Positions 2,580-54,205 of a DNA stretch of 64,000 nt are shown here, one piece after another (within the stretch, counting starts at the first letter, position 1; each line of letters starts with the position of its first letter). Source of the DNA: Centroscyllium fabricii (taxonomy: Eukaryota). The translations under genes were made by a program, and so were the position numbers. The DNA lies in assembly GCA_051313645.2 (NCBI GenBank), contig JBNRSN020000009.1, positions 182,838,001 through 182,902,000 on the forward strand, read 5' to 3'. The notes beneath the pieces are model-generated. The model was not told the origin of the DNA. It saw only the letters and a list, made by a program, of their open reading frames with translations, and did no database searches.

Positions 2580-3374
2580 TTGCCAAAAGTGCGGGAACCT
2601 GGCGGGGATTGGTCTGGGCGGCTTCCTGTCCCACCCGCCTAAACACGTGGGAAGCCCACGAAATTTAAATTTAATTGAGTTGTTAAATCCATGCCGGCGG
2701 CAGCGGGTGGTAATTAATTCAATCGAGTCGGGCTGTAGCGGGGCTGCAAGGAGTTTGATTGACAGTTCCAGCACTGGTTGTTGACAGTTCCCATGGAAAC
2801 ACTCCACTGTGACATCACAGTCGAGTGGAACCAATGAGAAAGGTCAAGTGCTGGTGACTGACAGGTGGGCGGGCAGGCTCCGAATCCTTGACAGCTCGCA
2901 CCGGCTGTGAGCAAATGTGCAAAGCTGAGATTTCTCAGTTTTTGCTCACAGCTGGTGCAGCAACTGCGGAGTAACTTACTCCACTAAGGTGCTGGATGCA
3001 TGCCAAGCATTTGGCAGCTTGTCCTTCACAACTTGAAGGAGAAAGTAATAACCAGTGCTGTGCTCCCGTTGGGTTTCACCCAGCGGGGTTTAAGGTGACG
3101 GGGTTAGGGTGGGAAACAGCTCAAAATGGCTGAGGGCCCTTAAAATGGCATTAAAGATGCCAATTAAGGGCCTTAACGAGGTGACAAGCCATCCCCGCCG
3201 GCCGGCGGCGGGAAGGTTTCGGGGAGGGGAATCAGGGCGGGGGAAAATGAGAAAGCGGCAGTGATACGGCGGGGGGGGGGGGGGGGGGGCGGGGGGGTCG
3301 CGACCCACTGGTTGCGCTATTTTGCCGGCTGAGCCGCCGAAAACCCCGCCTCATGGGGACATGAAATTCCCCCT
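2580..3374. mobile_element. GC-rich MITE (Harbinger-like); related copies at 38980-40848 and 63642-64000
   Basis: Long near-identity of 2600-2920 to 63660-64000 and of 3000-3370 to 40480-40848; right end GAAATTCCCCC. Confidence 0.6.
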
Positions 3375-3376
3375 TG

Positions 3377-3555
3377 AATCAAAGAAGATAGGAGCAGGAG
3401 TGGGTCCTTCGGCCCCTCGAGCCTGCTCCGCCATTCAATGAGATCATGGCTGATCATTCAAATTCAGTACCCTGTTCCTGCCTTCTCCCCATATCGCTCA
3501 ATCCCTTTAGCCTTAACAAATATATCTAACTCCTTCTTGAATATATTTAATGGCC
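3377..3555 (-). mobile_element. CR1 LINE 3' tail fragment
   Basis: Matches the 1190-1390 tail sequence. Confidence 0.75.
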
Positions 3556-4259
3556 TTTTCTTGTTCCTACTTTTCTATAGGATCCTCACAGAGCCAATAC
3601 AGACAACTTTCATCCAATCAGTCTGACTGCCACAGGTCAAAGGGAAAGTACGGATCCACTACACCACTCAGTTCCCCATGAACTGACCCTTCCCACCGCT
3701 CACTCATTCAGCCATGCGTTCAATAAAACTGGTGGCCCTCTCAACATGCCTATAGTCCATGTGACGATCACCCATTCAGTGCTGCTCTTACGAGGTGTAC
3801 TGCCACAGTCCTGCCCTTGTAAATAAATGATACATTTCAGCACGTTCTTTACCCTGTGAAGATATCTGTAAGTTTAATTACTGACATGGGTGATCCCTGT
3901 TCTCATCTGCACAAGGCAAAATCCTAACATGTTTCATTTTTTTTTAATCAGGTGTCATAGTTAAAGACAGGCAGCCTACTGGGTTTCAAACTTTTTCAAT
4001 CTAATTGTACAACTGAATATTTAGGGAGCAGGAAACACAATCCTCCAAATCAGATGTGACAGAGTAAAAAGCAGCATGAAACTATGGCTGGGTTGCAATT
4101 AATAATTGAACGATACAAGTCTGGCAGAAAGGGCGAGAAAAATGAAAGGGAAGAGAAAGTGTGAAGAGAAGCAAAGCGAGAAAGCGGGAATGAAGTGAAA
4201 GTCAAACTGAAGAAGCACCTAACTCTGCAGAACAACAGAGAAATGAGGAAATACATTAT

Positions 4260-5127
4260 GGGCCAGAATTTCGGGTGCCTCGCACCAGATGCCCACGCAC
4301 GAACAGGTCCAAAATGCCCCGTGTGATGAACGCACGGGAGATGCCCACGGATCCGAGATTTCCGATGCTGAGGGAGAAGGGCCCTCAGCATCAAACGCAG
4401 GAGTGAGTTGCACCCAAGAATTCGGGTGGAAAAGGGTCAATTTGCTGCGTGATTCTGTGGGCAACGGAGCCTTGAGATGCACGTCAGAAAAGCTGTAGTA
4501 ACTCGTGCGTGAGGGAGAGAAAAACGTTCTTAAACAAGGTAAGTTACTTTTTTACCTTTAATTTTAAGTTTTAACAATTTTTGGGAGTAATGTGGCCAGA
4601 TCGGTATCATTAAATTTGGATGTTAACGTTTTGAAAAAATTTTTACAAATCTGATTTTCAATTGCTGTACCTATTCCAAATCGCTAATTTTTAAATTTAA
4701 AGTTCTGAAATGTTTAACTAATTTAGTTAAGTTAAAAAACTAAGAGAAAAAAATCGCTGACTTACCTTCGGTGAAAAGCTGGTCTGGCCGCGCTGCTCAC
4801 TGCCGAGTCTGTGAGTGCAGCGCCTCATGTCCCTGCTCTCTAAAAGGTCCGACTCGGGATCTGTGGGCGTTTTTTAATTTAAATTGGTGATCTGTGGGCG
4901 TTTTTTAATTTAAATTTGTGATCTGTGGGCGGGGCATCACTGTTGCGCACGTACGACGGCAGCGCATCAACTGAGCTCCTAGCGTGGCTGGACTGCCACG
5001 TTGCGCAGGAAGGGGGCGGAGCCGAGCCGAAATGCTGGGAGTAAAAAATGTGCGATGTTGGTGCGGTTTGAAAGGTGTCCGCAGGGTCCTACTTCCGTAC
5101 TAACCGGCAAACCCGAAATTCTGGCTC
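4260..5127. mobile_element. MITE with 17-bp TIRs (PIF/Harbinger-like); near-identical copy at 59949-60772
   Basis: TIRs GGGCCAGAATTTCGGGT / ACCCGAAATTCTGGCTC; no coding capacity; second copy in the window. Confidence 0.8.
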
Positions 5128-5299
5128 ATTGTTGTTGTTTTTCACTTCAATCATTTTGGAAGAAGCTATTGTTCATTGGCATTTTCAATTAATTCTGACC
5201 TAGTCCAGGTGATATTACTGTATAACATGAACATTTGTACCTGCACTATATGACGAAGACTAGTGTTACTTTGTACTTTTGTAATTATAATAAGATAAA

Positions 5300-5417
5300 A
5301 GGGAGGTGAGATTGGGATGGGGAGGGAGGGGAGGGAGAGTTGGCGGAGAGTGGGATGAGGGAGAGGGGGGAAAAGTGGGTTGGAGAGTGGGGCGAGAGTG
5401 GGGGAGTGTGCGATGGG
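5300..5417 (+). repeat. Purine-rich (GGAGAGTGGG-like) low-complexity tract, left half
   Basis: G/A-rich degenerate repeats that continue at 13061-13380 on the other side of the LTR element. Confidence 0.75.
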
Positions 5418-5623
5418 TGTTGTGTATGTATAGGCAGCCACTGTGAACCAATAACAAGGCTGCACTATTTCTTTGGGGTATATGAATACTGTAATACACC
5501 TTCTGACCACTGAGTATAAATAATGCTGTATCACGATCTAGTTTCAGTTTCCACCTGGTCTTCAACTAGTAAACACCCTTTATTCTGTTGCCCTGTGTAC
5601 TTCTTAAACTGCATACTTAACAG

Positions 5624-5633
5624 TGGCGACGAG
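5624..5633 (+). promoter_or_regulatory. Primer-binding site complementary to the 3' end of tRNA-Ser(GCU)
   Basis: TGGCGACGAG 1 nt after the 5' LTR; complementary to ...CUCGUCGCCA-3' of vertebrate tRNA-Ser(GCU). Confidence 0.75.
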
Positions 5634-6168
5634 CAAACGGAATGAACTCAGCAGCTACAGTGCAGAAACAGGCCATGAAGAAACTCTCCAGCAGACAGCC
5701 TATAAAGTCGGGCATCGATCGGGAGACAACACCCAGTACAGCAGCCGCAGCAGTCGGACACAGCACCAAGAGGCTGTCGAGGATCGTTTTCATTCTCCAG
5801 CCACGGGGCAACGAGAAAATTAAGGTACTGCACAATCCCTTCCAGCTATCGGAGTTAATTGCCGGATGACACCAAGCTGGGCCCAGGCCGACGGGGGAAG
5901 GTACCGGGTGATTGGAAACTCAACAGGAGTGGCGATCCGCGACCAGGTGACAGTGAACGTTGCCGTGGGTGGAAAAGGGCACCACTATCACAACGAGGAC
6001 CACGTAAATTGATAGCGGGAAAGAAAGAAAAGGAAAAAGGCGGGCAAATGCCATTTTGAGGAGGGAAAAGTGCCGGAAGAGAAAGGAAAAAGGCAGGAAA
6101 ACGCCATTTTCAAACGGAAAAACGCCATCTTGAAATATTTTATTTTTTTGTGTGTATCTAAAAACAAA

Positions 6169-7840
6169 ATGTTTAAAGGAGGCTACCTCACCCCATTCCA
6201 GGAAGGTACAGAAGATTGGGATGCCTATGTTGAAAGACTGGAAGTCTATTGCCAGATGAATGACATACCCGATGACAAAAAGGCCGCGGCCCTTCTAAAC
6301 TACATGGGTGCACAAACGTTTGGATTTTAAAGGACCTGATCACTCCAGACAAACCGACTGACAAAACGTTTGGCCAAATTGTCAAAACGATGAAAGATCA
6401 CTTGAGTTCAGCTCTGCCTCTCATCGTAGAAAGATACCGCTTTTACAAGCTTACGCAACAAAGGGGCCAGTCGCTGGCAGAGTATTTGGCTGAACTGCAA
6501 AGATAAGCGAGACATTGTCAGTTTCGGGAGGGCTTAACGGACGCCCTGCGGGATAAGTTTGTTTGCGGCATGCTGGATGAAACTACCCAAAAGCAGTTAT
6601 TAACCGAAAAACAGCTTACCTTACAGCAAGCATTCAACACAGCATCTGTTCATGAAGCAGCAGCACGAGGCGCTGCAGAAATACAGCAAAATACACCGAG
6701 CTATGGGGCACATGCAGTTACGGTCCAAGCAACCAGGTGCTACCACTGTGGTGCCACAACTCACGACCAAACTGCTTGTTGGTTTCGTGACAAGATGTGC
6801 AGACGATGTGGCAAGCTAGGCCATATTGCCAGAGTTTGTCGCTCACACAACAACAGCAGCCGCAGGGGAAGCACGGCGACTTGCAAGCGAAAAATTCATA
6901 AAATGGATGACAATAGCTTGGATGAGGCACCAGGAGACACGCAGATGGAGTATAAGAACCTGGGATGCCTCGAATTGTACAGTGCGGGAAAAACAGAGGA
7001 CCACCATGTAATGTTGCTCGAGGTCAGAATAGCCGGTGTCAAAATAAATATGGAGTTGGACACAGGATCATCCTTATCGGTCATCAATGTCGAAGATTAC
7101 GAGAGGCTATTCAAATACATTCCTCTGAGGGACACCAAAATTGTCCTGAAGATGTATACTGGGCAGGAAATATATCCACAAGGGTATATACAAGTGACTC
7201 TTAGATACAATGGTATGACAATACCTGGATTGTCTTTATATGTCTTACAGAATGGTGGAGCACCGCTTTTGGGCCGGGAGTGGATAAGAAAAATCCATCT
7301 CGACGGGAACTTGATACATGATTTCATCGAGGTTGCAAAAGATGATACCACCACTTCGGACAGGCTGGAGATGCGCCAGCTACATATCTTCCAACTGAAT
7401 CGAGGACTACAGGAAGACGACAGAGTGGAGGAACTAGAAGGAGCCCTACGTGAGAGTCTACACAAGATTGAGCACGACAGAGTTAACATGCAAAGTCAAA
7501 TTGATGGACTGCAGTCGGATATCGAAACTCTGAAGGCCAATATGGGAACACACCAAGGACTCTTGATAGAACAAGAGAAGAATGAGGTACTGGAGCAGAA
7601 TCTGCAAGTCGTAGCAGAATCATCATCATTACCAGCCAACATGGAACAGGAGGATGAGGCTCCCCAGGAGCTTCAGTTGCAGAGCTTGACACCTGAACAG
7701 GCCCACGATGCCAAAGAGAGTACTCACCTGAACCCAGAATTGCGCGAGCAAATCAGACAACCTGAGAAGGAGGTGGCATACTTCAAAGAGGAGTCTAGTA
7801 AATCTCAGGCTGAAGTTGATAGACTTTCAGAGATGCTGGA
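6169..7840 (+). pseudogene. Element A gag-protease (frameshifted near 6325) fused to an ERC/ELKS-like coiled coil
   Basis: N-terminal EDWDAYVERLE; CYHCGATTHDQTAC and CRRCGKLGHIARVC zinc knuckles; LDTGSS and LLGREW protease motifs; then a heptad-rich segment cut by element B. Confidence 0.85.
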
Positions 7841-10800
7841 TGATGCACAATCAATTACTCCAGTCGATGGTTAGATGTAACCGAGGCTTTTATTAACATA
7901 GAAGTGGACACAGGTCCGATGATCTTCCAAGCCAAAGTGAAAGCACTCAGGTGTGCTGACACTTTTATACCCAGTGGGCGGAGCCTGGGGAGGAAGCCGA
8001 GGAGCGGAGTCCTCTCAGGTGAGCCCTCCCTGGTGAGGAGGCGTTACTGTACAGTTACAGGGAGGGGACACAAGGGGGAGACATATATATATATATATAT
8101 ACATATACAGTGGTTTACCACATTCACACCCTGTTTAAAAAAATTAAGGCGGGTTGAATGATCTTTCAAACAATATTTACAAAAATCAAAGATTGAGTCT
8201 CTCTGGTGGTCTGGTGGGCCAAGTCGACCGTCGCAGTGCAGGTCTTGGGGTTGTTCCTGGGGTCGACGGCCGTGATGCCTCCAGCGGTTGTCTGACTTCC
8301 GGCTGTGTCACGTCTTCTGAAGTCGGTGGTGGAGCAGCTGTGGGGGGTTGGGTGTCGTACATCATTCCGCCCCGAGATTCCCGTGTGCCGTATACTGGAG
8401 CTGTAAAAGAACCAGACGACAGCGTCTCGTGAAGGGGGACGGTGGTGGGGGTGGGGGTGGGGGGGGGGGGGCGGTGGTCTCTGGGGCACCCGAGGGCACA
8501 AGGTCTCTAATGGAGACCGTGTCCTCCCGCCCATCTGGGAATGCCACGTAGGCGTACTGGGGGTTGGCGTGGAGGAGCTGTACCCTTTCGACCAGGGGGT
8601 CTGTCTTGTGGGCCCTCACGTGTCTCCGGAGTAAGACAGACCCGGGGGATGTCAGCCACGTTGGCAGCGAGGTCCCGGATGCAGACTCCCTGGGGAAGCA
8701 GAACATCCGCTCGTGAGGGGTGGCATTGGTGGCGGTGCAGAGCAGTGACCTAATGGAGTGGAGGGCATCTGGGAGAACCTCCTGCCAGCGGGAGATGGGG
8801 AGGCCCTTGGACCGCAGGGCAAGGCTGATGGCCTTCCAGACGGTGCCGTTCTCCTGCTCAACCTACCCGTTGCCCCGGGGGTTGTAGCTAGTGGTCCTGC
8901 TCGTCGCAATCCCTTTGGACAGCAGGTACTGGCGCAGCTCGTCACTCATGAATGACGACCCCCTGTCTGTGTGAATATAGTTGGGGTAGCCGAACATGGT
9001 GAAGATGCTGTGCAGACACCTGATGGTTGTGGCTGTGGTCATGTCTGGGCAAGGGATTGCGAAGGGGAAGCGTGAGTACTCATCGATGACTGTCAGGAAG
9101 TACCCGTTCCTGTTGGTGGAGGGGCGGGGGCCCTTGAAATCGACGCTCAGTCGTTCGAAGGGGCTGGTGGCCTTGACCAAGCTTGCTCTGCTAGGTCGGA
9201 AAAAATTGGGTTTGCACTCTGCACAGGTGGGGCAGTGCCTGGTGATGTCCTGGACGTCTTAAAACGGAATAGGGCAGGTTGCGGGATTTCACGAAGTGAT
9301 AGAGCTGGGTGATCCCGGGGTGGCAGAGGTCATTGTGGATGGACTGCAGTCTATCCACTTGTGCTCTGGCACAGGTTCCACGGGATAGTGCGTCCGGGGG
9401 CTCATTGAGTTTACCAGGCCGGTACAAGATGTCATAATTATAGGTGGACAGTTCAATTCTCCACAGTAGGATTTTGTCATTTTTTATTTTACCCCGCTGG
9501 TTGTTACTAAACATGAAAGCCACCGACCACTGGTCAGTGAGCAGGGTAAATCTTCTACCAGCCAGGTAGTGTCTCCAGTGCCGCACCACATCCACGATGG
9601 CCTGGGCCTCCTTCTCCGCTGATGAATGCCTGATTTCGGGGCCATGAAGGGTGCAGGAGAAGAAGGCAACCGGCCGACCAGACTGGTTGAGAGTGGTGGC
9701 CAGGGCAAAGTCAGAGGCATCACTTTCCACCTGGAACGGGGCGGATTCGTCCACAGCGTGCATGGTCGCCTTGGCGATGGCCGCTTTGATGCTGTCGAAG
9801 GCTGCACGAGCGTCGTTCGACAGGGGGAAAGAGGTGGATTTCAGGAGGGGGCGGGCTCTGTCGGCATACTGGGGGACCCATTGGGCGTAGTACAAAAAGA
9901 AGCCCAGGCACCTTTTCAGGGCCTTCGGGCTCTGGGGGAGGGGGAGCTCCATGAGGGGGCGCATGCGTTCGGGGTCCAGGCCGATGACCCCGTTTTCCAC
10001 GACGCACACCAGGATGGCGAGGCGGGTGGTGCGGAAAATGCATTTTTCCTCATTGTAGGTGAGGTTGAGGCACTTGGCGGTGTGGAGGAATCTGGCCAGG
10101 TTGGCATCGTGGTCCCTCATGTCGTGGCCACAGATGGTGACATTGTCGAGGTAGGGGAAGGTAGCCAGCAGCCCGTTTCGGTCCACCATCCGGTCCATCT
10201 CCCGTTGGAAGACCGACACGCCATTGGTGACCCCGAAAGGGACCGTCAGGAAGTGGTAGAGGCGGCCATTCGCCTCAAAGGCGATGAAGTGGTGGTCTCC
10301 AGGGTGGATGGAGAGCTGATGGTATGCCAACTTAAGGTCAATTGTAGAGAACACCCTGCACTGTGCAATCTCGTTGACCATGTCTGAGATGCGAGGCAGG
10401 GGGTATGCGTCCAATTGGGTGAAACGGTTTATTGTCTGGCTGTAATCGATGACCAGGCGGGGTTTGTTGCCGGTCTTGACGACTACAACCTGGGCCCTAC
10501 AGGGGCTGTTGCTGGCCTCGATGATCCCCTCCCTCAGTAGCCGCTGGACCTCAGACCCAATGAACAGTCTGTCCCCCGTGCTGTAGCGCCTGCTTTTGGT
10601 AGCTATGGGCTTACAGTCGGGGGTGAGGTTAGCGAATAGTGAGGGAGGGGCGACTTCAAGGGTCGAAAGGCTGCAAACGGTGTGGGGTTCGCGCTGTGCG
10701 AACTGCTGGCTACAGACAGTCAAGGAGGGGAGGGGGCCACCGTATTTCATGATGACGCTGTCGAGGTGGCTCTGAAAATCAATGCCCAGTAGGACGGCAG

Positions 10801-12386
10801 CGCAGAGGTGGGGGAGGACCAGTAGTTTAAAACGGTTATACACAGTACCCCGCACCCTGAGTGTGACCACGCAAAGACCACCGACTTCCGCCGTCGCGGC
10901 GTTGGAAGCCATTAGGATCCGCTGGCGCGCGGGGAGTACCGTGAGGGAAAGCTTCCGCACCGTGTCCGGATATATAAAACTTTCGGTACTCCCTGAGTCA
11001 AAAAGGCAATTAACCGCACGGCCGTTTACCTCAATCCCCATTGTTGATCGCGCCAGTTGGTGGGGCCGGGTCTGGTCCAGTGTTATCGATGCGAGCTGCG
11101 GGAGCTCTGTCGTTAGGCGTAGTGATGTCCATTGGTCGCACACGGCTGAGTAGTCCTCAAGATGGCCACCCTGTGGGAGTAGGCGTGGCGCTGGTGCAAG
11201 ATGGCTGCCACCGTGTTCACCGCGTGGAGGGGGGGAGGGTGCAAGATGGCCGTCCGATCCAAAATGGCCGCCCCCATGTTCGCCACGTGGGGGTGAGTGC
11301 TGGTTGCCCCAAAATGGCCGCTCTGTGGGAGCACACGCGGCGCTGCTGGGGGGGGGATGGTCTGCTCTTGCACACTGCTGCATAATGTCCCTTCTTCTTG
11401 CAGCTAGAGCACAGCGCTTCTTTAGCAGGGCAGCGCTGCCTGGGGTGTTTCGTCTGCCCGCAGAAATAGCACCTCTGGGGTCGGGCCGCTGCTGCGGACG
11501 TGAGTGGGGGCACAGCGGTGGTCGTCTCGCCCGCGCCCCTTGCTGGTCGTAGGCCTCTCCCTGCAACTGTGCTGCCTCCAGCGATTCTGCTAGTGCTTCG
11601 GCCGCTGCCAGGCCTATGTTACTCCGCTCCAGCAGTCGCTGGCGAGGATAGGATGACCTGAGCCCGGCCACCAGCGCACCCCGGAGGATTATGTCTTGGT
11701 GCTCGTTGGCCGTTAGCGGCCTACAATTGCAGGCGCGCACGAGCGTTCGCAACGCTGCCATATAGTTCGTTAGGGACTCACCAGGCTGTTGTTTCCTGTT
11801 TAGCAGTAGGTGCCTGGTGTAGATTTCGTTAGCTGGCGTAGTGAAGTGGGCTTTTAAGGCATCCAGGGCGCTCCTGTAGGTCGTTTCGCCCTCGATTAAG
11901 CTGAAAAGCACAGGGCTGACCTGGGCCCGCAGGACGCTGAGTTTCCGCTGGTCTGTGTCCACGGTCAGGCAGGATTCCTCGAGGAAGGCTTCGAAGCAGG
12001 AGACCCAGTGTGTGAAGGCCCGCTCAGCGCCTGCTGATCGCAGGACGAGGTTGAGTCTTTCGGGCCTCAGGAACTTTTCCATCCTCTTCGCGAAAAAAAC
12101 TATGTTAATAAAATTGATGCACAATCAATTACTCCAGTCGATGGTTAGATGTAACCGAGGCTTTTATTAACATAGAAGTGGACACAGGTCCGATGATCTT
12201 CCAAGCCAAAGTGAAAGCACTCAGGTGTGCTGACACTTTTATACCCAGTGGGCGGAGCCTGGGGAGGAAGCCGAGGAGCGGAGTCCTCCCAGGTGAGTCC
12301 TCCCTGGCGAGGAGGCGTTACCGTACAGTTACAGGGAGGGGACACAAGGGGGAGACATATATATACATATACAGTGGTTTACCACA
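7841..12386 (-). mobile_element. Near-full-length Ty3/Gypsy LTR retrotransposon 'B'
   Basis: LTRs at 12115-12386 (5') and 7841-8122 (3'), TG...CA; 5-bp TSD CTGGA (7836-7840 / 12387-12391); PPT-like AAACAGGGTGTGAA before the 3' LTR; order gag-PR-RT-RH-IN. Confidence 0.95.
8166..12082 (-). pseudogene. Element B gag-pol polyprotein with several frameshifts
   Basis: gag start MEKFLRPERL at 12082; CCHC knuckles in a shifted frame (11217-11513); LFDSGS protease; RT VPFGVTNG...YLDN; RNase H DASD...EKEAQA...TDQ...DALSR; integrase HHCC and DFKGP...DRGSSF in downstream frames. Confidence 0.92.
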
Positions 12387-12391
12387 CTGGA

Positions 12392-12500
12392 ATAATTCGA
12401 GACTACGAAAAAGGACAGAGATACAAAAATAACAGAGCTTGAGGGACAAATAAAAGATCAGAATCACACAATTACCAACCTGGAACAGAAAGTCCAACAA
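12392..12500 (+). pseudogene. Continuation of the element A ERC/ELKS-like coiled coil after the element B insertion
   Basis: After removing B and one TSD the frame reads EMLE*FETTKKDRDTKITELEGQIKDQNHTITNLEQKVQ. Confidence 0.75.
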
Positions 12501-13060
12501 TGGAGAGCTTGGGAAGCAGAGATTGCAGAGTTTGAAGCTGAAGAACTGCAGTCTGACCAACACATAGCAGAACCTGAAAGGCTGACGGACACCGAATGGC
12601 GAGGAATGAGTATCTGCCAGTGTGGAGAAGGAAGCAACTCAGTCGGGGAGCTGGCTGGGGAAGGATAGAAACAACTCCATTGCAGAAAGAAACAACGCCG
12701 TCGCAGGAAAAACTAAATTTTGAAGAGACTGTTAAAATGTTGGTGGAGACTGAACGCGTAACGAACAATATTGTTATTCTATGTTAAATGTTATTGTAAA
12801 TATGTTTACTTTTCTCTGTACAAATTATTTACTTGTTATCTTAAGAGGGGAGGGATGTTGTGTATGTATAGGCAGCCCCTGTGAACCAATAACAAGGCTG
12901 CACTATTTCTTTGGGGTGTATGAATACTGTAATACACCTTCTGACCACTGAGTATAAATAATGCTGTATCACGATCTAGTTTCAGTTGCCATCTGGACTT
13001 CAGCTTGGAAACACCCTTTATTGTGTTGCCCTGTGTCCTTCTTAAACTGCATACTTAACA

Positions 13061-21779: not shown

Positions 21780-23871
21780 AATAAGTTTGAGAATGAGCAT
21801 TGTGTGCAGACTGTGAACTGACACACAGCTCGAATGACCATACATCCCCATTTTCCAGGGACAGCCCCCGGATGAGGTACTGTGTCCTCGGGCAAACACT
21901 GTCCCTAGAAGAGTCCCTGATTCATGAAACTCGTCCCCGAATAGACTAGAGTCATAGTCATTAGAATATATGCATATCATTATATTTGACATAATCACAG
22001 TTTCAGGTCAATAGACTGAACAGTGTTATGTATTATTTATAAACGGTGTCTGAACGTGCTTCAACATCACATACTTATACACACATTTGTTTTGCATTTA
22101 TAGTGTATATGTGCAACTGTTAAAAATACAGGCTGCCAAAAAAACCTTGCCTCTCTACGTTGCGTAACCTACATTTTCCGTCCTGGCTACTTTGCTGCGT
22201 TCCCACACCTGAGTACTGAAACTTCCGTGGTGGAATAGAAATGGCTTGTTTTGATGTTTTGCCCAAAATAAACGTTGATCGTTATCCAATTAAGCCTCCT
22301 TTGTTTCAGCTGGCCTACTGGCTGGCCCTTCATACATATTCAATACTCTCATCTGGAGCATGTACTTTTGAAGTAACAGACTGCGTCTGGCCCCTGTTGC
22401 TGGGGAGAAAATGACCAGCTTCCAGCTGCGGTCATGTGACCCCAGACTCCATTTTGTCCACTTCAAAAATGTGTCCATTTTCTGTAACTTTGCTTCACAA
22501 GGGCTGGGAAAGCAGGACATTTTGCGAATCTTACACCTTAGCCTTGGCACATGTTTATGTCTTGAATCTATGAAAATAAATGCTTTAAAATGTAAACTCA
22601 AGAGTAGGGATTTCACTCTATCTGATTATGACAGGAAGAGGGAAGCCAGTTTGTGAACATTAGCAATGTTGAAATGAATTTGAGGATGTCTTCCATGAAT
22701 ATGTATTTGACTTAAATCAGTTTCATTCAGTTCAAACGCTTGGCTCTAGGTCTCCGGGAGATACTGCAATTAAGTTTCACATTTCTACAAGAGTGTATAA
22801 AAAATGTCTTTCATAAAATCTCTTGCTCTGTTCCGTATTCCAAAAGGATATCAGATGCACATACTAATTGACATCCTTCTGTAATATTGAGTGAATCAAT
22901 TTCAACGAGTGGTCAAGTTGTTCATCAAGAACCGCTTTAATAATTAGTCTCAATCCTAAAGCAACCTGTTCAGGACCACTAAATCAGCACAAGAGCTTTA
23001 CTCCAGAGTTCATGCATCTGTCTCTTCCCTTCCACCAGGACTATACTGCTTTCCCCTCCCCGACCGTGTTTCCTTTTCTCATTTCACTGGTTTTACATTA
23101 CTTTGGCTGTCAAGTGAGGTACTGGCTGAAGAAAACAATGAATTAAAGCGTAATCACGCAAATTGCTCAGAAGTGCTCCTGTTTCTTGATTTATTTTGAG
23201 TTTAGCTCTCTTCAGCTAATCCTTGCACTGCGACCAAAGCCAGTGGAAACTAAACTGCAGCCTCGGAAAGTGACTCAGCATGAGAACAGCGGTTGCGATG
23301 GTAGCAGTCATGTTTTCCTCCATCTATCAGTCCTGATGGCCACTTGCAGAATGAAGGTAGCAATTTTCAGAGTTGACAGGAAGTACAGCAGATTCAAAAG
23401 TGCAAGTAGATGCCTGTCTAAATAGCTTGGCACAGTTGCCTTTGAGTCAGAAGGAGGTGATTCCAAATCCCACCTAGGACTTAGGCCCATTAAACTACAT
23501 GATACTTCAATAAACTATTTAGGGAGTGTGGTAACCCTATTATGTAATTGTTACCACTGTATTATTGTGCCAATAATGGGCTGTGCAGATGTAAGGCACA
23601 GCCCTGTAACCTGTGTAATACTGTTGGGCATAGCCCTGTAACCTGTGTAATACTGTTGGGAGCCAGGTCAGCCACACCTCTAACTCCTCCCCCAGGTGAG
23701 GCCCTTTATAGGTGGAAACTGACCGAGGCTCCTCATTCCTGTACAGAAGTTCGTTCCGGAGGGTAGCTCCAAACTTAGCGATTAAAAGCCTTTAGTTACG
23801 GTAACTACTCGTCGACTCATTTAATCGGAGATATTGACGATACGTCAATTTTAATCGCTAAGTATTTTAAA

Positions 23872-26800
23872 ATGGAGAGCAGCGCAGTTAAACCAGAGAA
23901 GCTGGACATCAGTCCCCAGGACCTTGCCGCTGCTACCACGTTCGAACACTGGTTCGGCCTCCTGGAGGCCTACATGGACGCAGCCAAGGCTACAACGGAC
24001 AGGAACAAATTGCAGGTCCTCCGGTCGAGGATCTCCAGCAGGGTATTCTCCCTCATCAGAAACGCCTCAACCTACCCAGCTGCTGTGGAGAAGCTAAGGA
24101 AGTGCTACGAGCGCCCGGTACATTCGGTATACGCCAGACATGTGCTTGCGACCAGATCTCAGCTACCGGGTGAGACCAATGAGCAGTTCAAGCAAGCGCT
24201 CCAGGCCCTGGTACGGGTCTGTGGCTGCCAATCCAGAATGGCTGAAGAGGAGGCGAACCTCCTCGTTCGGGACGCTTATGTTACTGGACTGAGGTGTGTG
24301 GAAGCCTGCCAGCGGCTGCTGGAGAAAGACACTCTGTCCCTTGAGGATGCGATTACGATATCCAACTCAGTAGAGGGGGCCCGAAACAAATTACAGGCAT
24401 GCAGCGGCACTAACCCGCACGCCTACGACATATGGGCCGCGCCACAATGGGCCCAGGCCTGGGCAGCACCACAACGGGTCGAGACCCCCACGATGGCGGC
24501 GACAGCCACTAAAGATAAGCGCTGCTACTTCTGCAGCCAGGGACTGCACCCAAGAGCGAGATGTCCGGCCAGGACAGCGACCCGCGAGAGATGCGCTAAG
24601 AAAGGACACTACGCTAAAGCCTGCAGATCAGCTCCAGCAGCGCCTAACCCAAGGTACAACAGTGCAGCCTGTGAGAGCACCGACAGACACCAGGTAAGCT
24701 GCAATAGCAGCGCGATACAGCGACGGTCCGGTGGTAGAAAACAAGCGCCCCCATCCCCCACCCAGATGTGGCAAAGGCCGGCCAAGCGCGACCCCCCAGT
24801 GCGGCCGGCTGCGTGCGAATCACGGGCAATGCCAAACTGACCACCGCGGCTCGCTGCGTGCGAATCACGGGCACCGCCAACCCCGTCACCATGGTCCGCT
24901 GCGTGCGAATCACGGGCGCCGCCAGCACGCTCACAGCGGCCCACCATGTGCGACCCCTCGGCGCCGCCATTTTGTATCCAGGGCCCCACCATGTGCGAGC
25001 CAGGGGCGCCGCCATTTTGCATCCAGGGCCCCACCATGTGCGAGCCAGGGGCGCCGCCATTTTGTATCCAGGGCCCCACCATGTGCGAGCCAGGGGCGCC
25101 GCCATCTTGTGTACAGCCCCGACCAGCAGGGGGCCCACACACACGAAAACGCACGGCTGCGGCGGCCAGACTCAGAGTGAACCAGGACAGGCCACATACC
25201 CTGTCTAACTCTATTATGCCCATTAAGATTAACAGCTATACTGTTAACTGCCTGTTTGACACTGGAAGCACGGACAGCTTCGTACACCCCGATACAGTGC
25301 AGCGCTGCGGACTGCAGGTCCTGCCCACTAGCTACCAAGTCTCCCTAGCTTCTCAGTCCCACACCGCGGACGTCACCAGCTACTGCTCCGTCACGCTCAC
25401 AGTCAAGGGGCGCGTGTACCATAATTTTAAATTGTATACCCTCCAGCAGTTGTGTGCCCCAGCCTTATTAGGTTTGGATTTCCAGTGCCACCTCAAGAGC
25501 GTGACAATGGAGTTCGGCGGGACCTTGCCCCCCCTCACCGTCAGTAGCCGGGACAATCCCTTCCCAAAGCGGAGCCCGGCCTGCGGCCTCTCTACCCTGA
25601 AAATCGACCCCCCCTCGCTGTTCGCCAACCTCGATCCGAAGTGCAAACCCATTGCTACTAAGAGTCGGCGGTACAGTGTGGGGGATCTCAGGTCGGAGGT
25701 CGGGCGTATGCTGAAGGAGGGAATAATTGAAGCCAGCACCAGCCCCTGGCGTGCCCAAGTTGTAGTGGTGAAGTCTGGCGAGAAACAACGGCTGGTGATC
25801 GATTACAGCCAGACTATCAACTGCTACACCGGGCTCGACGCCGACCCCCTTCCCCGCATCTCAGACATGGTCAATCAGATCGCCCAGTACAAGGTGTTCT
25901 CCACGATCGACCTTAAATCAGCGTATCATCAGCTCCCGATTCGGAAATCCGAGCGCCCCTACACCGCCTTCGAGGCGAACGGTCGGCTCTACCACTTCCT
26001 CCGGGTCCCCTTTGGCGTGACCAACGGAGTGTCAGTGTTCCAGCGGGAGATGGACCGTATGGTTGACCAAAATGAGTTGCAGGCCACTTTCCCTTACCTG
26101 GACAACATGACCATCTGCGGCCACGACCAGCAGGACCACGATGCCAATCTGGCCAGATTTCTCGACACGGCGGATAAGCTGGACCTCACGTATAACAAAG
26201 ACAAATGTGTCTTTAATACAGACCGGCTCGCCATCCTCGGATACGTGGTGGAGAACGGGGTCCTCGGCCCCGACCCACAGCGTATGCGACCCCTGCAAGA
26301 ACTGCCCCTACCTCACAATCCCAAAGCCTTGAGGAGATGACTAGGATTTTTTTCTTATTATGCACAATGGGTCCCACAGTTCGCAGATAAGGCTAGACCA
26401 CTCCTCAAGGCTGCCGTCTTCCCCCTTTCTGTAGAAGCCCAAATGGCATTCGCAAGGATAAAGGAAGACATCATCAAGGCGACCATGCTCGCTGTTGATG
26501 AATCCAACCCTTTCCAGGTGGAGAGCGACGCTTCGGACTTCGCCCTTGCTGCCACCCTGAATCAGGCAGGCAGGCCCATAGCGTTTTTCTCCTGCACCCT
26601 ACAGGAACCCGAAACTCGCCACTCTGCAGTGGAAAAGGAGGCCCAGGCCATCGTGGAGGCTGTGCGCTACTGGCGTCATTACCTGGCCGGTAAGCGTTTT
26701 ACCCTGCTCACCGACCAACGGTCGGTAGCGTTTATGTTTAAAAATAAACAACGGGGTAAAATCAAGAATGATAAGATCCTGCGGTGGCTGATCGAACTCT

Positions 26801-28086
26801 CGACTTACGAGTACGACATTCTTTACCGACCAGGCAAACTCAATGAACCCCCGGATGCACTGTCCAGGGGAACGTGCGCCAGTGCCCAGCTAGACCGGCT
26901 GAAGGACCTCCACGACCGCCTTTGCCACCCGGGTGTCACCAGACTCGCCCACTTTGTCAGATCCCGTAGCCTCCCCTACTCCATCACGGAGATCAAGGCT
27001 ATGACCCGAGAGTGCCCTGTCTGTGCCGAGTGCAAACCCCACTTTTTCCGGCCAGACACGGCGCACCTCATTAAGGCCACCCGCCCCTTTGAACGTCTCA
27101 GCGTGGACTTCAAAGGCCCCCTCCCTTCCACCGACCGCAACTCATACTTCCTCACGGTAGTGGATGAGTTCTCCCGCTTCCCCTTCGCCTTCCCCTGCGC
27201 AGATATGACGAGCGCAACGGTGATAAAACACTTCACCACGCTGTTCGCCATTTTCGGTCTCCCCAGCTACATCCATAGCGACCGGGGGTCATCGTTCATG
27301 AGCGATGAACTGCGCCAGTTTCTGCTCCAGAAAGGGGTTGCCACGAGCAGAACGACCAGTTATAACCCCCGGGGGAACGACCAGGTAGAAAGGGAGAATG
27401 GGATCATTTGGAAGGCGGTCACCCTGGCTCTTAAGTCCAGAGGCCTTCCAGTGGCCCATTGGCAGGCAGTCCTCCCAGACGCGCTGCACTCTATACGCTC
27501 GCTTCTGTGTACAGCTACTAACACCACCCCGCATGATCTGATTTTCTCCTTCCCCAGGAAATCGACTTCGGGGACAGCTCTCCCTCCATGGCTGACGACA
27601 CCGGGGCCGGTCTTCCTTAGGAGACATGTCCGGAGCCACAAGACAGACCCCCTGGTGGACAAGGTGCAGCTCCTACACGCAAACCCACATTACGCATTCG
27701 TGCAGTTCCCGGACGGGCGCGAGGACACCGTGTCCATCAGGGACCTGGCTCCCGCAGGAAGCACCACCGCAGAGCCCCTGGTCAGCCAGCAGGCCGCTCA
27801 GCCACTGTATCCAGAGAACCCACCAGGCACACGATGGCCCCTGAGCTTCCCAGAGCCCCAGCAGTGGCCAGTACAAAACTACCACCCGGACGGCGTGGAC
27901 CAGCTGGATCCATCGCCACCAGAAGCCACGGCACCTGATCAGCGGTCACCACCGGCAGACGCGAGTGGTACGAACCAGGAGGCACCACCACCACCACCGG
28001 AACGCCGGCGGTCCTCCAGGCAGACACGACCGCCGGACAGACTGATCGTTAATTGTTCGGCCCATTCACCCACCCCCCGGACTTAA
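23872..28086 (+). pseudogene. Element C single-frame gag-pol interrupted by two premature TGA stops (24838, 26338)
   Basis: ORFs starting at 23872, 24946 and 26443 share one frame; the stops align with CGA and TGC in sister copies; CCHC, LFDTGS, YLDN, RNase H and HHCC/DDE integrase motifs are present. Confidence 0.92.
24805..25110 (+). repeat. Two arrays of ~45-bp tandem repeats in the gag-protease spacer
   Basis: GCTGCGTGCGAATCACGGGC x3, then CCCACCATGTGCGA...GGCGCCGCCATTTTG x4. Confidence 0.9.
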
Positions 28087-28513
28087 AATTTTCAAGAAGG
28101 GGTGAATGTGGTAACCCTATTATGTAATAGTTACCACTATTATTGTGCCAATAATGGGCTGTGCAGATGTAAGGCACAGCCCTATTACCTGTGTAATACT
28201 GTTGGGCATAGCCCTGTAACCTGTGTAATACTGTTGGGAGCCAGGTCAGCCACACCTCTAACTCCTCCCCCAGGTGAGGCCCTTTATAGGTGGAAACTGA
28301 CCGAGGCTCCTCATTCCTGTACAGAAGTTCGTTCCGGAGGGTAGCTCCAAACTTAGCGATTAAAAGCCTTTAGTTACGGTAACTACTCGTCGACTCATTT
28401 AATCGGAGATATTGACGATACGTCAGGGAGATCTACATTGCCAGAAGCACTGCCTTTTGGTTGAGATTACATTAAACCAATGCCTTATCTGCTTAGTCAG
28501 TGTTTGAGGCAGA

Positions 28514-46050: not shown

Positions 46051-47378
46051 TGTGGTAACCCTTATATGGTTACCATTGCCTTATATGGTTACCATTGTAT
46101 AGTACCATTGTACTGTTGGGAGCCAGGTCAGCCACACCCCCAACTCCTCCCCCAGGTGGGGGCACCGATATAAGGTGTGGCCAGACCCAGCTCCTTCATT
46201 CTTGTATGTGAACTTGTGAGGAGACTAGCTCCATTCTTTATCAATTAAAAGCCTTGTATTTCGGTACTTACGAGTCGCCTTTTAATTGAGTTAGCGGCTA
46301 CGCTACAGTTTTAATTGATAATCTTAAAATGGAGAGCAGCACGGTAAAACCTAGGGAGCTGGACATTAGCCCTCAGGATGCCGCGGCACCAGCTACCTTC
46401 AAGCACTGGTTCGGATTACTAAAGGCCTATATGGCAGCAGCCAAGGCTACCAAAGACGAGGACAAACTCCAAGTCCTGCTATCCAGGGTCTCCAGCAGGG
46501 TTTTCACCCTTGTCGAGGACCTTACAACCTACGAGGAAATGGTGACGACCCTCAAACAGTACTATGAGCGCCCGGTCCACTCTGTCTACGCCTGCCACCT
46601 ACTAGCGACCCGATCTCAACTACCCGGTGAGTCAAACGACGAGTTTGAGCAAGCGCTCCGGGGCATGATACGGGCCTGTGGCTGCAAGGGTGGATTGACC
46701 AAGGCACAGGAAGGCCAAGGCATCCTCCTCCGGGACGCCTATGTCTCAGGACTAAGATGTGCAGTAGCCCGTCAGAGGCTACTGGAAAAGGACAATCTGA
46801 CCCTTGAGGAGGCAACCACGTTAGCCAAATCGGTGGAGGGGGCCCGTAATAAATCGCAGATGTACGGTGGTACCAGCCATCAAGTCTACAACATATGGGC
46901 CGCACCACAACAGGCGTCACGGATTGAGAGCCCCACGATGGCCGCGACGGCCACCACGGACACTAAGCTCAAACACTGCTATTTCTGCGGCCAAGGATTG
47001 CACCCCAGAGCAAAATGCCCAGCCAAGACGGCGACCTGCGAAAAATGCTCCAAGAAGGGACACTTTGCCAAAGCCTGCAGAGCTACTCCAGCCACAGCAT
47101 CTAAAAGGTACAACAGTGCAGCCTGTGAGAGCAACCAGCACCAGGTAAGCTGCATTTGCAGTGCTATTCAGCGACGGCACGCGCCCCCTCCCCCCACCTC
47201 GATGCAGCAGCAACCGGCCAAACGCGATCTTACAACGCGGCTGGCTGCGTGCGAATCACGGGCACCGCCAACCCGACCACCGCGGTTCGCTGCATGCGAA
47301 TCACGGGCGCCGCCAGCGCGTCCACCGCGGTTAGCTGCGTGCGAACCACGGGCGCCGCCAGCGCGTTCACCGCGGTTC
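46051..47378 (+). mobile_element. 3'-truncated Ty3/Gypsy element 'D' (5' LTR and gag)
   Basis: LTR 46051-46307 (TGTGGTAACC...CTACA); gag from 46329 homologous to C and E with two CCHC knuckles; breaks off inside the AACESRA repeats. Confidence 0.9.
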
Positions 47379-48286: not shown

Positions 48287-49800
48287 CACTGAGATTCAAT
48301 GAATTGATTGACCAATTACAATAACAGATCTTGCTATCTATAATGAGCACTGGGGAAATCCAGGGATTTGGGGATCAGGCAGGAAAGTGGAGTTGAGGTC
48401 AGAGATCAGCAATGATCTTATAGAATGGCGGAGCAGGCTCGAGGGATCTACTCCTATTTCTTATGCTCTGGTATTACTGTATGCTGGGAATGCAAGTGCA
48501 GAATGTCTAGGTCTTAGAAAGGGAAATAGAAGCAGAATGAAACGCAAGTGAAAAGCTCATGAAATGCATCAAATTGTAAGGCACGCTTGAAACTCACTTG
48601 GTGTGTGTGGAATTACACAACAGGATGAAAATGACCAAAATACAGATCAGTTTTGACAGTAAAGTTTGACAGAACAGAATAGAATATGTTACTGGATGAA
48701 AGTCTGAGGCAATTTAATTTCTCTCTGTGAATAAAAATATTTTAATTTCTCTTCTCTCTTGGGGATGTTCTTTATTGGAAATTTTAATGTGGCACGGTTA
48801 ATTAAAACCAAAGATTTTGGTCATATTTGTTGCCAAGGATGGACATCACAGTGAGTGGACTAGGAGCAAAGGGAAAGCATTATAGAATAGAATATTGGTC
48901 CAACGTTTCAAGATTTTTCCAACAAATTTCGGTGTTCTCACTCCGCTTCGTGCCACGAATGACGGACATTTTCTAATTGGCATTTTTTTTTCCTTCAAGC
49001 GATTTTATTTTTGGGATTAATTTTAACAAACGTATGTTCTCCAAGACCTTGTAACAAACTTGACATCCTTACCAAAAACTCCACTCTCTGTTGCCAGAAA
49101 GACTTTCTGTATTTGCTTCTTCGTTTAACTTTTACTCTTTGTAGGGGGCACAGACCACACTTGCAGACAATATCTAATTCTAAATCTACTAAGCATATCA
49201 TTACGTTTCAGTCAAAAATTAAAGTCGTAGAATAACCGAATAACTTCACAGCAATCTTGTGCTTTCCTAATGAGTCGCTGTTATTCAAGTAAACACACTG
49301 GACAGCTGTGAACCAACAAATGGATCGACCCCGAGCTAAACATATTTTTATTGCCTGTAATGTAGAAGACAGATTGGGACAAAGCATACCCCTTTAATGC
49401 AGAGACTTGCTTACATAAGTTTATGTAAATATGCTTGATATTTGGAGAAACAATATTTTGCCATAAAACACTCTCTGAAGTCAAAGTAAAGCTACAAAAA
49501 ATGTTATGTCATTGTAGTGAAGTCGATAACCCAATTAAAAGGCGACAAGTTAGTACCGAACAAAAGGCTTTTAATTACTAAACAATGGAGCTACTCTCCA
49601 GGCAACAACTGTAACAGAACTGGGTGGAGCCCCGGTCAGACCACACCTATATAGAGCCCCACAAGGGGAGGAGTCGGGGGTGTGGCTGATCTGGCTCCCA
49701 ACAAGATCACAGTAAAACAGGGCTGTGCCTAACATCAGCACAGCCCACAATCAGTCATGACAACACAGCAGTGGAATACAGTGGAATATGATTACCACAT

Positions 49801-52800: not shown

Positions 52801-54205
52801 GTGGGACCCCGTACATCGGATGATTTTTTCTCTGCCCCACAAAATGGCGCCGTCCCTGCCCCCCACTGGGAGGGGCACTCGTTGTCAAATGACGTCGCCC
52901 CTGCCCCGCAGCCCGTGGGACCCCATACATCGGATGATTTTGTCTCCAAACAAAATGGCGCCTTCCCTGCCCCGCACTGAGAGGGGCACTCGTTGCCAAA
53001 TGGCATCGCCCCTGCCCCGCAGCCCGTGGGACCCCGGACATCGGATGATTTTTTCTCAGCCCCGCATGTGGAGGAGCCCTCGGTGCTAGAAGGCATCACC
53101 CCTGTCCCGCAGCCTGTGGGACCCCGTACAAAGGATGGCGACGTCTCTGCCCCGCACGTGGAGGAGCTCTGGCCCTGTGAACGCGCTGGCGGCGCCCGTG
53201 ATTCGCATGCAGCGGACCGCGGTGATCGGGTTGGCGGTGCCCGTGGTTCGCACGCAGCCGGCCGCGTTGGGGGGTCACGCTTGGCCGGCCTTCTCTGCAT
53301 CAGGTAAGAAGGGGTGGGGGCGCTCGTTGTCTACCCCCGTACCGTCGCTGGATCGCGCCGCTAATGCGTCTTACCTGATCGGTGCTCTCACAGGCTGCAC
53401 TGTTATACCTTCGGTTAGGCGCTGGTGGAGACGTTGTTGGACCTGACTTACAGGCTTTAGCGAAGTGCCCCTTCTTTAAACATTTGGCACAGGTCGCTGT
53501 CCTGGCTGGACATTTCGCTCTCGGGTGCAGTCCTTGGCCGCAGAAGTAGCAGTGCTTAACTCTAGTGTCTTTAGTGGCCGTCGCGGCCATCGTGGGGCTC
53601 TCGGCCCGTGGCGCCCAGGCTTGGGCCTGTTGTGGCGCGGCCCATACATTGTAGGCTTGCGGGTTTGTGCCGCCGTACGCCTGTAATTTATTACGGGCCC
53701 CCTCTACCGATTTGGCCAACGTGGTCGCCTCCTCGAGGGTCAAATTATCCCTTTCCAGTAGCCTCTGACGGGCTTCTACGCATCTCAGTCCAGTAACATA
53801 AGCGTCCCGAATGAGGAATTCTTCCTCCTGCGCAATAGTTGTGCCTTTGCAGCCACAGGCCCGCACCAGGGCCAGGAGCGCTTGCTCAAACTCCTCGTTA
53901 GACTCACCCGGTAGCTGGGATCGGGTCGCTAGCACATGTCGGGCGTAGACGGAATGGACCGGGTGCTCGTAGCATTTCTTGAGGATTGCCACGGTTCCCT
54001 CATAAGTTGAAGCATCCATGACGAGGGTGAAAACCCTGCTGGAGATCCTGGATCTCAGGACATGTAGCTTGTCCCCGTCCGTAGTAGCCTTGGCGGCTGC
54101 TGTATAGGCCTGTAGTAGGCCGAACCAGTGTTTGAAGGTAGCTGGTGCCGCGGCATCCTGGGGACTAATGTCCAGCTTGTCAGGCTTTACCGTGCTGCTA
54201 TCCAT
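49801..54205 (-). pseudogene. Element E gag-pol broken by two frameshifts (near 53305 and 51385)
   Basis: gag MDSSTVKPDK from 54205; ORFs 53300-54277, 51273-53300 and 49801-51348 are collinear with the single frame of element C; RT motif reads YLD-V (one codon missing). Confidence 0.92.
52705..53270 (-). repeat. Tandem repeats in the element E gag-protease spacer
   Basis: SSDVRGPTGCGAGATSFDNECPSQCGAGTAPFC-like units x3 plus AACE[SP]RA units. Confidence 0.88.

Follow-up and report, generated by a model that had tools for sequence, protein, structure and literature searches.

The window, a stretch of 64,000 nucleotides from the shark Centroscyllium fabricii, contains a Gypsy LTR element (element A, 5418-13060) that is split by a second element (element B), and this copy of element A is broken (Table 1). 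The LTR pair of element A shows a divergence of 5.0% (K2P), and its flanks, ATGGG and ACAGG, agree in 3/5 letters, with both mismatches appearing compatible with CpG decay. The LTRs of element B are 1.5% apart. The original prediction had described element B as a nested insertion with the target duplication CTGGA, after removal of which the cargo of element A becomes continuous, and this was confirmed: CTGGA is present on both sides (7836-7840 and 12388-12392), 38/39 sister copies pass uninterrupted from one cargo half to the other, and neither an insertion nor a stop is found at this site in 33 of the 35 sister copies inspected.

Table 1. Features of element A and of the nested element B in the window.
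Feature	Position	Strand	Remarks
5' LTR, element A	5418..5622	+	TG...CA, 205 bp
Primer-binding site	5623..5633	+	motif recurs after the 5' LTR in 19/19 two-LTR copies measured, differing by 0-3 changes
gag (capsid, CCHC knuckle)	6169..7019	+	window copy broken near 6326-6330 and at 6504-6506
Aspartic protease	7020..7289	+	Asp_protease_2, E = 2.7e-06
Protease-RT linker, then stretch without assigned source	7290..7418	+	shortened by a 411-nt deletion
ERC2 piece, exon D	7419..7464	+	84% DNA identity to host exon L129:3251-3445
CEP83 piece	7465..7589	+	spans one host exon junction in the window copy, three in long copies
ERC2 piece from the 3' portion of late exon Y	7590..7700	+	stops exactly at host splice donor
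Junction of back-splice type linking the end of exon Y to the start of exon B	7700..7701	+	in 74/77 family copies tested
ERC2 exon B, portion ahead of the nested insertion	7701..7840	+	
Nested Gypsy element B	7841..12387	-	976-codon frame for gag-PR-RT-RH; integrase fragmented
Remainder of ERC2 exon B, then the initial part of exon C	12393..12496	+	intron lost; stop at 12393-12395 in the window copy
Tail without assigned source, basic at its end	12497..12710	+	early stop 12666-12668 in the window copy
Polypurine tract	12843..12855	+	
3' LTR, element A	12856..13060	+	

The frame 6507-7838 contains, in this order, a zinc knuckle, an aspartic protease, and a match to the Pfam family Cast (E = 2.1e-10; 39.9 bits at a cut-off of 29.1; profile positions 443-588), and the Cast profile resumes past element B (positions 592-646, E = 0.011), each half having been searched on its own. 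The capsid was recognized by a Ty3_capsid match in an unbroken natural sister copy (E = 9e-07). No RT domain was found after the protease in the window frame, and, together with the significant Cast match, this bears out the earlier view that the frame runs from the protease into coiled-coil cargo and not into RT. The claimed polypurine tract and 3' LTR are also present, but the proposed integrase-tail-like remnant found no support: the tail matches no Pfam family and has zero matches in the non-family DNA compared, including an autonomous Gypsy relative. With the 411-nt deletion, this copy lost the ANKRD26 pieces together with the first ERC2 piece; for the remaining unassigned stretch within 7290..7418, no source was found, and the ESM Atlas had no match at ≥0.9 for the head.

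Element A is a copy of a multi-copy non-autonomous Gypsy family that encodes Gag, protease, and cargo in a single frame, without RT or integrase. Further copies with the same cargo, for which the original prediction had suggested a search, are numerous: the C. fabricii genome contains at least 150 copies of the family. Its members have the paired TG...CA LTRs, the primer-binding site, the polypurine tract, and the 5-bp target duplication of Ty3/Gypsy elements, with duplications in 7/9 short and 7/10 long two-LTR copies (14/19 with at least 4/5 letters matching), and the Ty3-type capsid, knuckle, and protease are 43-46% identical to an autonomous relative that is ordered PR-RT-RH-IN. No RT or integrase belonging to the family was found in frame, and RT matches at the retrieved family loci sit in separate inserted or adjacent elements. 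As for an autonomous partner with the same LTR ends, only a distant relative was found in the DNA compared. The long form expanded in a star-like burst and has few variants in common among its copies, and the subfamily of the window copy has spread despite the loss of all ANKRD26 and most CEP83 sequence; two single copies (L165 and L071) lack gag or much of the cargo. Element-like contigs in two presumed-RNA runs of organism C cross element-specific joins, an observation made without a silent control and not counted as evidence of expression.

In the longer sister copies, the cargo is a mosaic of ANKRD26, CEP83, and ERC2, and all host pieces (8/8) are coiled coil and in their native frame. The ANKRD26 match to the donor is 90% over 20 aa and 71% over 80 aa, the CEP83 pieces are 92-98% identical at the DNA level to four host exons and 82-85% to a fifth one beside an assembly gap, and ERC2 exons C, D, and Y (the letter "D" being a label coined in this analysis) show 79-98% DNA identity to the host. 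Judged by sequence identity, the ERC-like donor is ERC2, with long copies being 97-98% identical to the same genome's own exon Y (G000:C1488:70505025-70505213), to which the window copy is 84% identical. ERC1 was rejected as donor, as all named best matches are ERC2, with a separate paralogue on C700. The cargo had been correctly called ERC/ELKS-like, but the donor set was incomplete, since CEP83 and ANKRD26 are also present; similarly, the shuffled order is real, but about 40 codons that lie between the ERC-like stretches (7465-7589) are CEP83 and not ERC. Wherever a host exon junction could be examined, at three sites in CEP83 and one in ERC2, the intron is gone. The prediction that a non-autonomous Gypsy element captured host RNA without introns is upheld, with the captured sequence fused in frame to Gag-protease and present in many copies. 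Where a non-splice join is flanked by host DNA on either side, the overlap is 8-18 nt (4/4 joins), a count made without a shuffle control. A PDB sequence search gave nothing under E = 0.86, and the ESM Atlas returned generic coiled-coil clusters for the middle of the cargo. In a search of representatives, the top match, a repetitive nematode protein, was set aside (28% identity over 17 stretches), and the remaining named matches were CEP83 or unnamed CEP83-like proteins. CEP83 RNA also occurs in unrelated chimeras and may simply be abundant, and further host-RNA chimeras of the same genome include non-coiled-coil genes, which the family cargo does not.

Gag is under purifying selection (dN/dS 0.32, p = 4e-06), whereas private changes, with values of about 1.0-1.1 in pooled regions, are neutral, including stops. 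These neutral private changes and the broken window copy speak against a domesticated Gag gene that serves the host. As to selection on the cargo among copies, which the original prediction had suggested measuring, the answer is twofold: stops and frameshifts are selected against, but the amino acids are only weakly constrained, with a dN/dS of 0.60 between subfamilies (p = 0.055). In host-derived cargo, 0/41 shared but 35/384 private amino-acid changes are stops (p = 0.024). With a cut-off of three copies for shared changes, one shared stop is found in the long-form cargo and two in the short-form tail, and a stop is never the commonest codon at any column in either subfamily. Large cargo deletions preserve the frame in 9/12 cases and the shared ones in 4/4, whereas 49/61 of the small indels private to one copy cause a frameshift in the cargo. 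Shared-versus-private N/S tests inside subfamilies were mostly not significant. Codon-periodic microhomology within E/K/Q-rich coding sequence can by itself push joins and deletions into frame. Along the cargo, dN/dS is 0.40 in CEP83 and 0.48 in exons B-C, which leaves room for a protein role, 2.2 in the exon Y piece, and 1.7 in the tail; from host to element it is 1.29 over 191 codons of ERC2 and CEP83 exons (23.5 N, 6.5 S). A Rab6/active-zone trafficking role, which had been raised as a speculation, is unsupported because the amino acids of the cargo are so weakly constrained; host-like residues have not been kept, and the window copy is broken. With about 150 permuted codons only and the host-to-element dN/dS of 1.29, a functional ERC/ELKS scaffold is not supported either.

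It is conceivable, though rather unlikely, that after the same capture the cargo was kept as a functional chimeric coiled coil with a putative role in bundling Gag or steering particles to the germ-cell centrosome. The uniformly coiled-coil, native-frame pieces, the dN/dS of the cargo between subfamilies and of its CEP83 and B-C parts, and the absence of the non-coiled-coil genes seen in other chimeras of this genome speak for such a role, and two of the three donors are distal-appendage proteins (PMC7883297; PMC11984956). Foamy virus Gag also reaches the centrosome via a Gag-linked coiled coil, CC3, but this is a functional analogy only (PMC3705263); CC3 is not host-captured, and a centrosomal function of the shark cargo would be hypothetical. 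Against this role, the host-to-element dN/dS and the values for exon Y and the tail exceed 1, the window subfamily spread without ANKRD26 and most CEP83, CEP83 RNA is perhaps merely abundant, and the PIDD1-binding region of ANKRD26 by itself did not localize to appendages (PMC7883297). We regard it as unlikely that a new Gag-linked domain arose from host RNAs, including a circRNA lap, whose CEP83 and ANKRD26 pieces would place particles at the germ-cell centrosome or disturb the ANKRD26-PIDD1-p53 checkpoint; if the cargo did act at the centrosome, a retrotransposon would have put a captured host function to use.

The ERC2 pieces are circularly permuted: the exact 3' end of the late exon Y abuts the exact 5' start of the earlier exon B. 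The splice donor of exon Y coincides with the junction to the base in host DNA, and the acceptor side rests on isoforms and one transcript contig, because G000 yielded no host exon B: two patterns gave no matches, a protein search in which 150 of 1,861 candidates were scored returned nothing but element-like copies, and the exon is neither in 500 kb of C1488 nor in 100 kb of C435. An assembly gap lies 30 kb upstream of host exon C. Four transcript runs, presumed to be RNA, were analyzed as assembled contigs. Host ERC2 contigs depart from the element at the junction base into the next exon in 3/4 runs, and in isoforms from shark and ray the breaks fall at these two exon boundaries as well. In one contig (X18), the match begins at the base after the junction and follows on the end of exon E, and in another (X20) the end of exon Y is joined to the start of exon G; therefore, both junction sites undergo back-splicing in relatives. 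Among the contigs of the four runs, none from host RNA showed the exact Y-to-B junction.

Only exons B, C, D, and Y served as ERC2 sources, with no high-identity ERC2 match outside B-Y. Within the exon C stretch, the last ERC2 piece spans positions 35-87 and the first spans 84-142, and contigs in 3/4 runs link the last to the first with two letters between, so that the ERC2 sequence begins and ends at the same spot within one exon. The probability that ends abut by chance is about 1.6% for 1,083 nt, and nearer 5% if only in-frame positions are counted. The ERC2 sequence thus likely represents one lap of a 1,083-nt circle. Host mRNA had been proposed as the template, and host RNA, being intronless, remains the source, but a circular RNA is the more likely ERC2 template because of the circular permutation with an exact back-splice junction. 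That no circle was involved, and that the order arose from template switches on linear mRNA or from a trans-spliced or exon-repeated transcript, is quite improbable. In its favor, every other join is a microhomology switch, AG is common to exon ends, other origins of non-colinear junctions were considered possible by Dong et al. (2016; PMC4897178), and the Y-to-B junction itself did not appear in host RNA. However, such a switch would have to fall with single-base precision on the end of one exon and on the start of another, the PEQ and LKK contexts would permit only about 2 nt of contiguous identity as opposed to 8-18 nt elsewhere, the coincidence of ERC2 start and stop is left unexplained, and both sites are back-spliced in relatives.

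Our overall reading, which we consider somewhat favored, is that a host-exon mosaic replaced RT, RNase H, and integrase via template switches, that the ERC2 part stems from one lap of a circRNA, and that the cargo is open-frame filler. The mosaic was likely built by RT template switches among co-packaged host RNAs, and its ERC2 part was likely copied in one lap from a back-spliced circular RNA. RT would have entered the circle inside exon C, crossed the back-splice junction, and been forced off at its entry point, the copy ending after one lap because its RNase H had presumably removed the template behind it; multi-lap cDNA from circles has been made using an RNase H-minus RT (PMC6721031). CEP83 may have taken the place of the lap's middle in the same round or later. 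The element would provide Gag in cis and borrow RT and integrase from an autonomous partner. The cargo would most likely act as filler that brings translation to near the 3' LTR, a candidate benefit being escape from the decay of long-3'-end RNAs, with a loose coiled-coil role at most. That the cargo is a pure hitchhiker, with microhomology and a founder endowed with a good LTR and Gag accounting for both frame and copy number, would fit the host-to-element dN/dS, the cargo dN/dS that is not significantly below 1, the single copies L165 and L071, and the 14/17 still very young Drosophila LTR retrocopies reported as in-frame (PMC5131818), but it is very improbable given that no shared change is a stop, that neither subfamily has a column with a stop as its commonest codon, and that the amplified deletions are in frame while most private small indels are not.

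The family is a new form of a known LTR-mediated capture. In the open-access literature, no earlier report was found that describes the family or a circRNA captured in frame with gag, and the single mention of ERC2 in PMC9004415 is unrelated. When LTR elements mediate retroposition in animals (Tan et al., 2016; PMC5131818), host RNA pieces likewise take the place of part of the element ORFs, the switch points show microsimilarity, chimeras of several genes occur, and copies go through additional retroposition rounds; those cases are young, low-copy retrocopies, whereas the shark elements form a large family with subfamilies under selection, and "circular" appears 0 times in the main text of that paper. 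Maize Bs1 is also an LTR element that combines exon fragments from three unlinked host genes into a single chimeric frame and was re-amplified with shared switch points (PMC5131818; PMC13317346). Its copy number is 1-5, and one of its pieces is out of frame, compared with at least 150 copies and 8/8 pieces in native frame here, and the shark family adds a vertebrate host, purifying selection on Gag, and a back-splice junction in one donor. It thus represents a high-copy animal counterpart of three-gene exon shuffling by a mobile element, with the frame under selection. The mouse circRFWD2 pseudogenes also share a non-colinear exon-exon junction, many genomic copies (33 high-confidence), and flanks enriched in LTR sequence without poly(A) (Dong et al., 2016; PMC4897178). 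They were termed pseudogenes of a "mysterious" mechanism, and the route by which circRNAs are written back into genomes was left open (PMC4897178). In contrast to these, the circle-derived sequence of the shark family lies, fused in frame, inside a full LTR-PBS-gag-PR-PPT-LTR unit, and both lap ends are readable. The back-splice junction and both lap ends kept within an LTR frame make the one-lap/RNase H mechanism testable, and, if true, RNase H-limited template switching would be an entry route of circRNAs into genomes, for which the one-lap signature offers a search tool in other genomes.

The original prediction held that element A, a non-autonomous Gypsy copy, had replaced pol with an ERC-like coiled coil, and this anatomy was borne out. 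In a profile search of the element A frame, Pfam Cast matches behind the protease (E=2.1e-10, above the curated cut-off), the sequence beyond the nested Gypsy element B extends the same profile, and no RT was found downstream of knuckle and protease. The assignment to ERC1/ERC2 held only for part of the cargo: ERC2 is on top among the named protein matches, with sharks and rays leading, but pieces of ANKRD26 and CEP83 are also present. From these matches, the host (7.2 Gb) is probably a cartilaginous fish. The window copy is disrupted (gag broken, element B inserted, two stops in the cargo). In one natural sister copy, Ty3 capsid, knuckle, protease and Cast all lie together in one frame of 704 codons. 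In the window and in sister-copy C-termini, a short basic run, which in our impression may resemble a nuclear localisation signal, closes the frame just ahead of the 3' untranslated end.

In the long copies, which carry a fuller cargo, the post-protease stretch covers about 480 codons, and the subfamily of the window copy (short form) is shorter by deletions of 411 and 228 nt. The long cargo consists, in order, of a head without assigned source, ANKRD26, the ERC2 exon C tail with part of exon D, CEP83 as two pieces, the ERC2 exon Y tail with exon B and the exon C head, and a tail without assigned source (exon letters are ours). The ANKRD26 piece matches shark ANKRD26 at 90% over 20 aa and 71% over 80 aa (Pfam CCDC144C, E=7.7e-21); identity to host ERC2 is 97-98% for exon Y, 85-93% for C and 79-83% for D, and identity to host CEP83 is 92-98% for four exons and 82-85% for a fifth next to an assembly gap. 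Introns are lost at three CEP83 junctions and at the ERC2 B-C junction, in line with the postulated intronless capture. At the four non-splice joins where both flanks are host DNA, the pieces overlap by 8-18 nt; CEP83 and exon Y, for instance, have a perfect 8-mer in common. The native reading frame is kept in 8/8 host pieces. Low contig depth over the cargo head in runs from relatives (organisms F and G) suggests a possible fourth donor gene; a search for the source of this head gave no identity.

The ERC pieces had been described as shuffled, and indeed exon Y, which in the host comes after B, C, D, E, G and H, has its end before the start of exon B in the element. The last base of exon Y, directly before the GT donor in the host, is joined to the first base of exon B, and this junction is kept in 74 of 77 family copies tested. 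Host exons C-Y were located on contig C1488, and exon B was looked for in the assembly and not found; its start is supported by a ray isoform in which an additional exon sits precisely there, and in catshark an isoform diverges immediately past the Y end. In three of four runs taken as RNA (organisms F and G), host contigs match a natural copy up to the end of Y and then continue into the exon that follows. One contig (run X18) begins to match with the opening base of exon B and has the end of exon E before it, an apparent E-to-B back-splice; its length of 652 nt would roughly fit the B-E circle of 623 nt once a k-mer overlap is added. Another (X20) links the Y end to the exon G start, an apparent Y-to-G back-splice. 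Since protease and tail are without contig cover in X17 and X19, the two of these runs checked there, the junction contigs are attributed to host transcripts and not to the element, and both the Y end and the B start are thus used in back-splicing in relatives. No contig of the four runs joins Y to B. Moreover, the ERC2 ends meet, since, counted along the exon C stretch, the first piece starts at 84 and the last one stops at 87, and contigs in three of four runs pass from one end piece to the other with two letters between. The chance of abutting ends on the 1,083-nt B-Y circle is about 1.6%, or nearer 5% if only in-frame positions are counted. By its sequence, the ERC2 portion resembles a circular RNA copied for one lap. 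The host ERC2 gene is divided between two contigs, on which exon B and several upstream exons were not located, and its exon G ends in a GC donor.

Further cargo-bearing copies had been anticipated. When 40 of 1,068 candidates from a DNA search were scored, 41 matches resulted, the full-length ones with 90-96% identity; protein searches scored 135 of 7,571 and 150 of 1,861 candidates, all apparently intronless. We retrieved 39 loci of the DNA-search set and examined 30 of the second set; all 30 have cargo and tail DNA in common with element A, and 26 also the LTR. Among copies with both LTRs recovered, 5-bp target duplications are present in 7/9 short and 7/10 long copies, with two short copies mis-trimmed by the script scored as misses, and median LTR divergence is 3.5% and 3.6%, respectively. 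A fraction of 0.29-0.54 of the sampled words of one long copy occurs in runs of organisms A-D and one fish-gut metagenome, so that the family is probably older than a split between species.

The open frame of the cargo matters and its host-like residues matter little, as follows from stops, deletions and dN/dS. Private changes are neutral (dN/dS about 1.0-1.1, pooled regions), as expected following insertion. Counted column by column between short and long subfamilies, dN/dS is 0.32 for Gag (269 codons, p=4e-06), 0.59 for the protease (not significant), 0.60 for the host-derived cargo (173 codons, p=0.055; CEP83 0.40, B-C 0.48, Y 2.17) and 1.68 for the tail, which is without amino-acid constraint; for host exons against the long form the value is 1.29 (191 codons, dS 0.045). 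Stops make up 0/41 changes shared by at least four copies versus 35/384 private ones (p=0.024), and a threshold of three copies admits one shared stop in the long form; the short-form tail has two. Large cargo deletions are in frame in 9/12 cases (p=0.004 versus one third), including 4/4 of those present in several copies; three single events in this count may be one imprecisely measured deletion, and not counted are three that begin before the cargo and three more at the frame end. That the cargo is a working coiled coil appears unlikely to us: CEP83 and ANKRD26 are both described as distal-appendage proteins, and a CCDC144C-like region that overlaps the PIDD1-binding domain contains the ANKRD26 pieces (PMC7883297), but the window subfamily still spread once ANKRD26 was lost, and CEP83 sequence is also present in other chimeras.

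What was observed is the anatomy, the donors, the junctions, the spread and a constraint that acts on Gag and on keeping the frame open; from this we infer a probable origin. Host RNAs would have been co-packaged and then joined by template switching, with the ERC2 circle captured in one lap; an element RT that has RNase H would degrade the template in its wake, forcing a switch after that lap. Multi-lap cDNA from circles is described for an RNase H-minus RT (PMC6721031). The cargo may act as filler keeping the frame open. In the long form, a stop after the protease leaves about 1.6 kb untranslated ahead of the 3' LTR; nonsense-mediated decay is described as more probable with long 3' untranslated ends, and Rous sarcoma virus as needing an escape element (PMC5031192). 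A partner element outside the present data probably mobilised the family, the autonomous-type relative that was found being only 43-46% identical.

As in this family, multi-gene capture by LTR elements is already described for Bs1 and by Tan et al., and LTR-associated circRNA pseudogenes are described by Dong et al. The open-access literature yielded no report of the element A family, nor of any in-frame fusion of gag with a back-splice junction. The weight of the family lies in its clear mechanism signature and its scale.

Coordinates of features in the window, in the host genome (G000) and in loci taken from it
Feature	Sequence	Position	Strand	Remarks
Element A	window	5418-13060		205-bp LTRs, 5.0% apart; PBS; PPT
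Element B	window	7841-12387	minus	LTRs 1.5% apart; interrupts element A; CTGGA on either side
Y-to-B junction	window	7700/7701
Basic run	window	12666-12710
Gypsy elements akin to B	window	23560-28425, 49511-54517, about 46455-47084
Cargo head	L157 (natural copy)	2880-2955
E-to-B (X18) and Y-to-G (X20) contigs	L157	3690-4140
Host ERC2	C435	1586114-1681009
Host ERC2	C1488	70505025-70854545
Gypsy relative of A	ERC2 intron (C1488)	L103:7400 to L104:1600		gag, PR, RT-RH, IN
Second chimera	L191 (C933)	3400-5400
Second chimera	L194	3400-4030
Second chimera	L195	3500-4140
Intronless CEP83 copy	L190 (C845)	3300-7200

The Gypsy relative in the ERC2 intron has a 95-nt 5' leader motif 82% alike to that of element A. 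A second multi-copy host-RNA chimera, at three loci mutually 94-95% alike, contains a C2 piece that is copine-like (Pfam C2, E=0.003), CEP83 pieces in which the earlier part follows the later, and SnAC sequence (E=2.8e-08), with no LTR pair inside about 8 kb. The intronless CEP83 copy continues into what we take to be a KH/STAR-like reading. An LTR element of 2.4 kb splits this copy; its LTRs measure 214 bp, and it carries no gene but gag, whose product is 45-49% like the Gag of element A. The further window elements akin to element B have LTR pairs 99% alike, RT 72-77% identical and 45-bp tandem repeats in gag.
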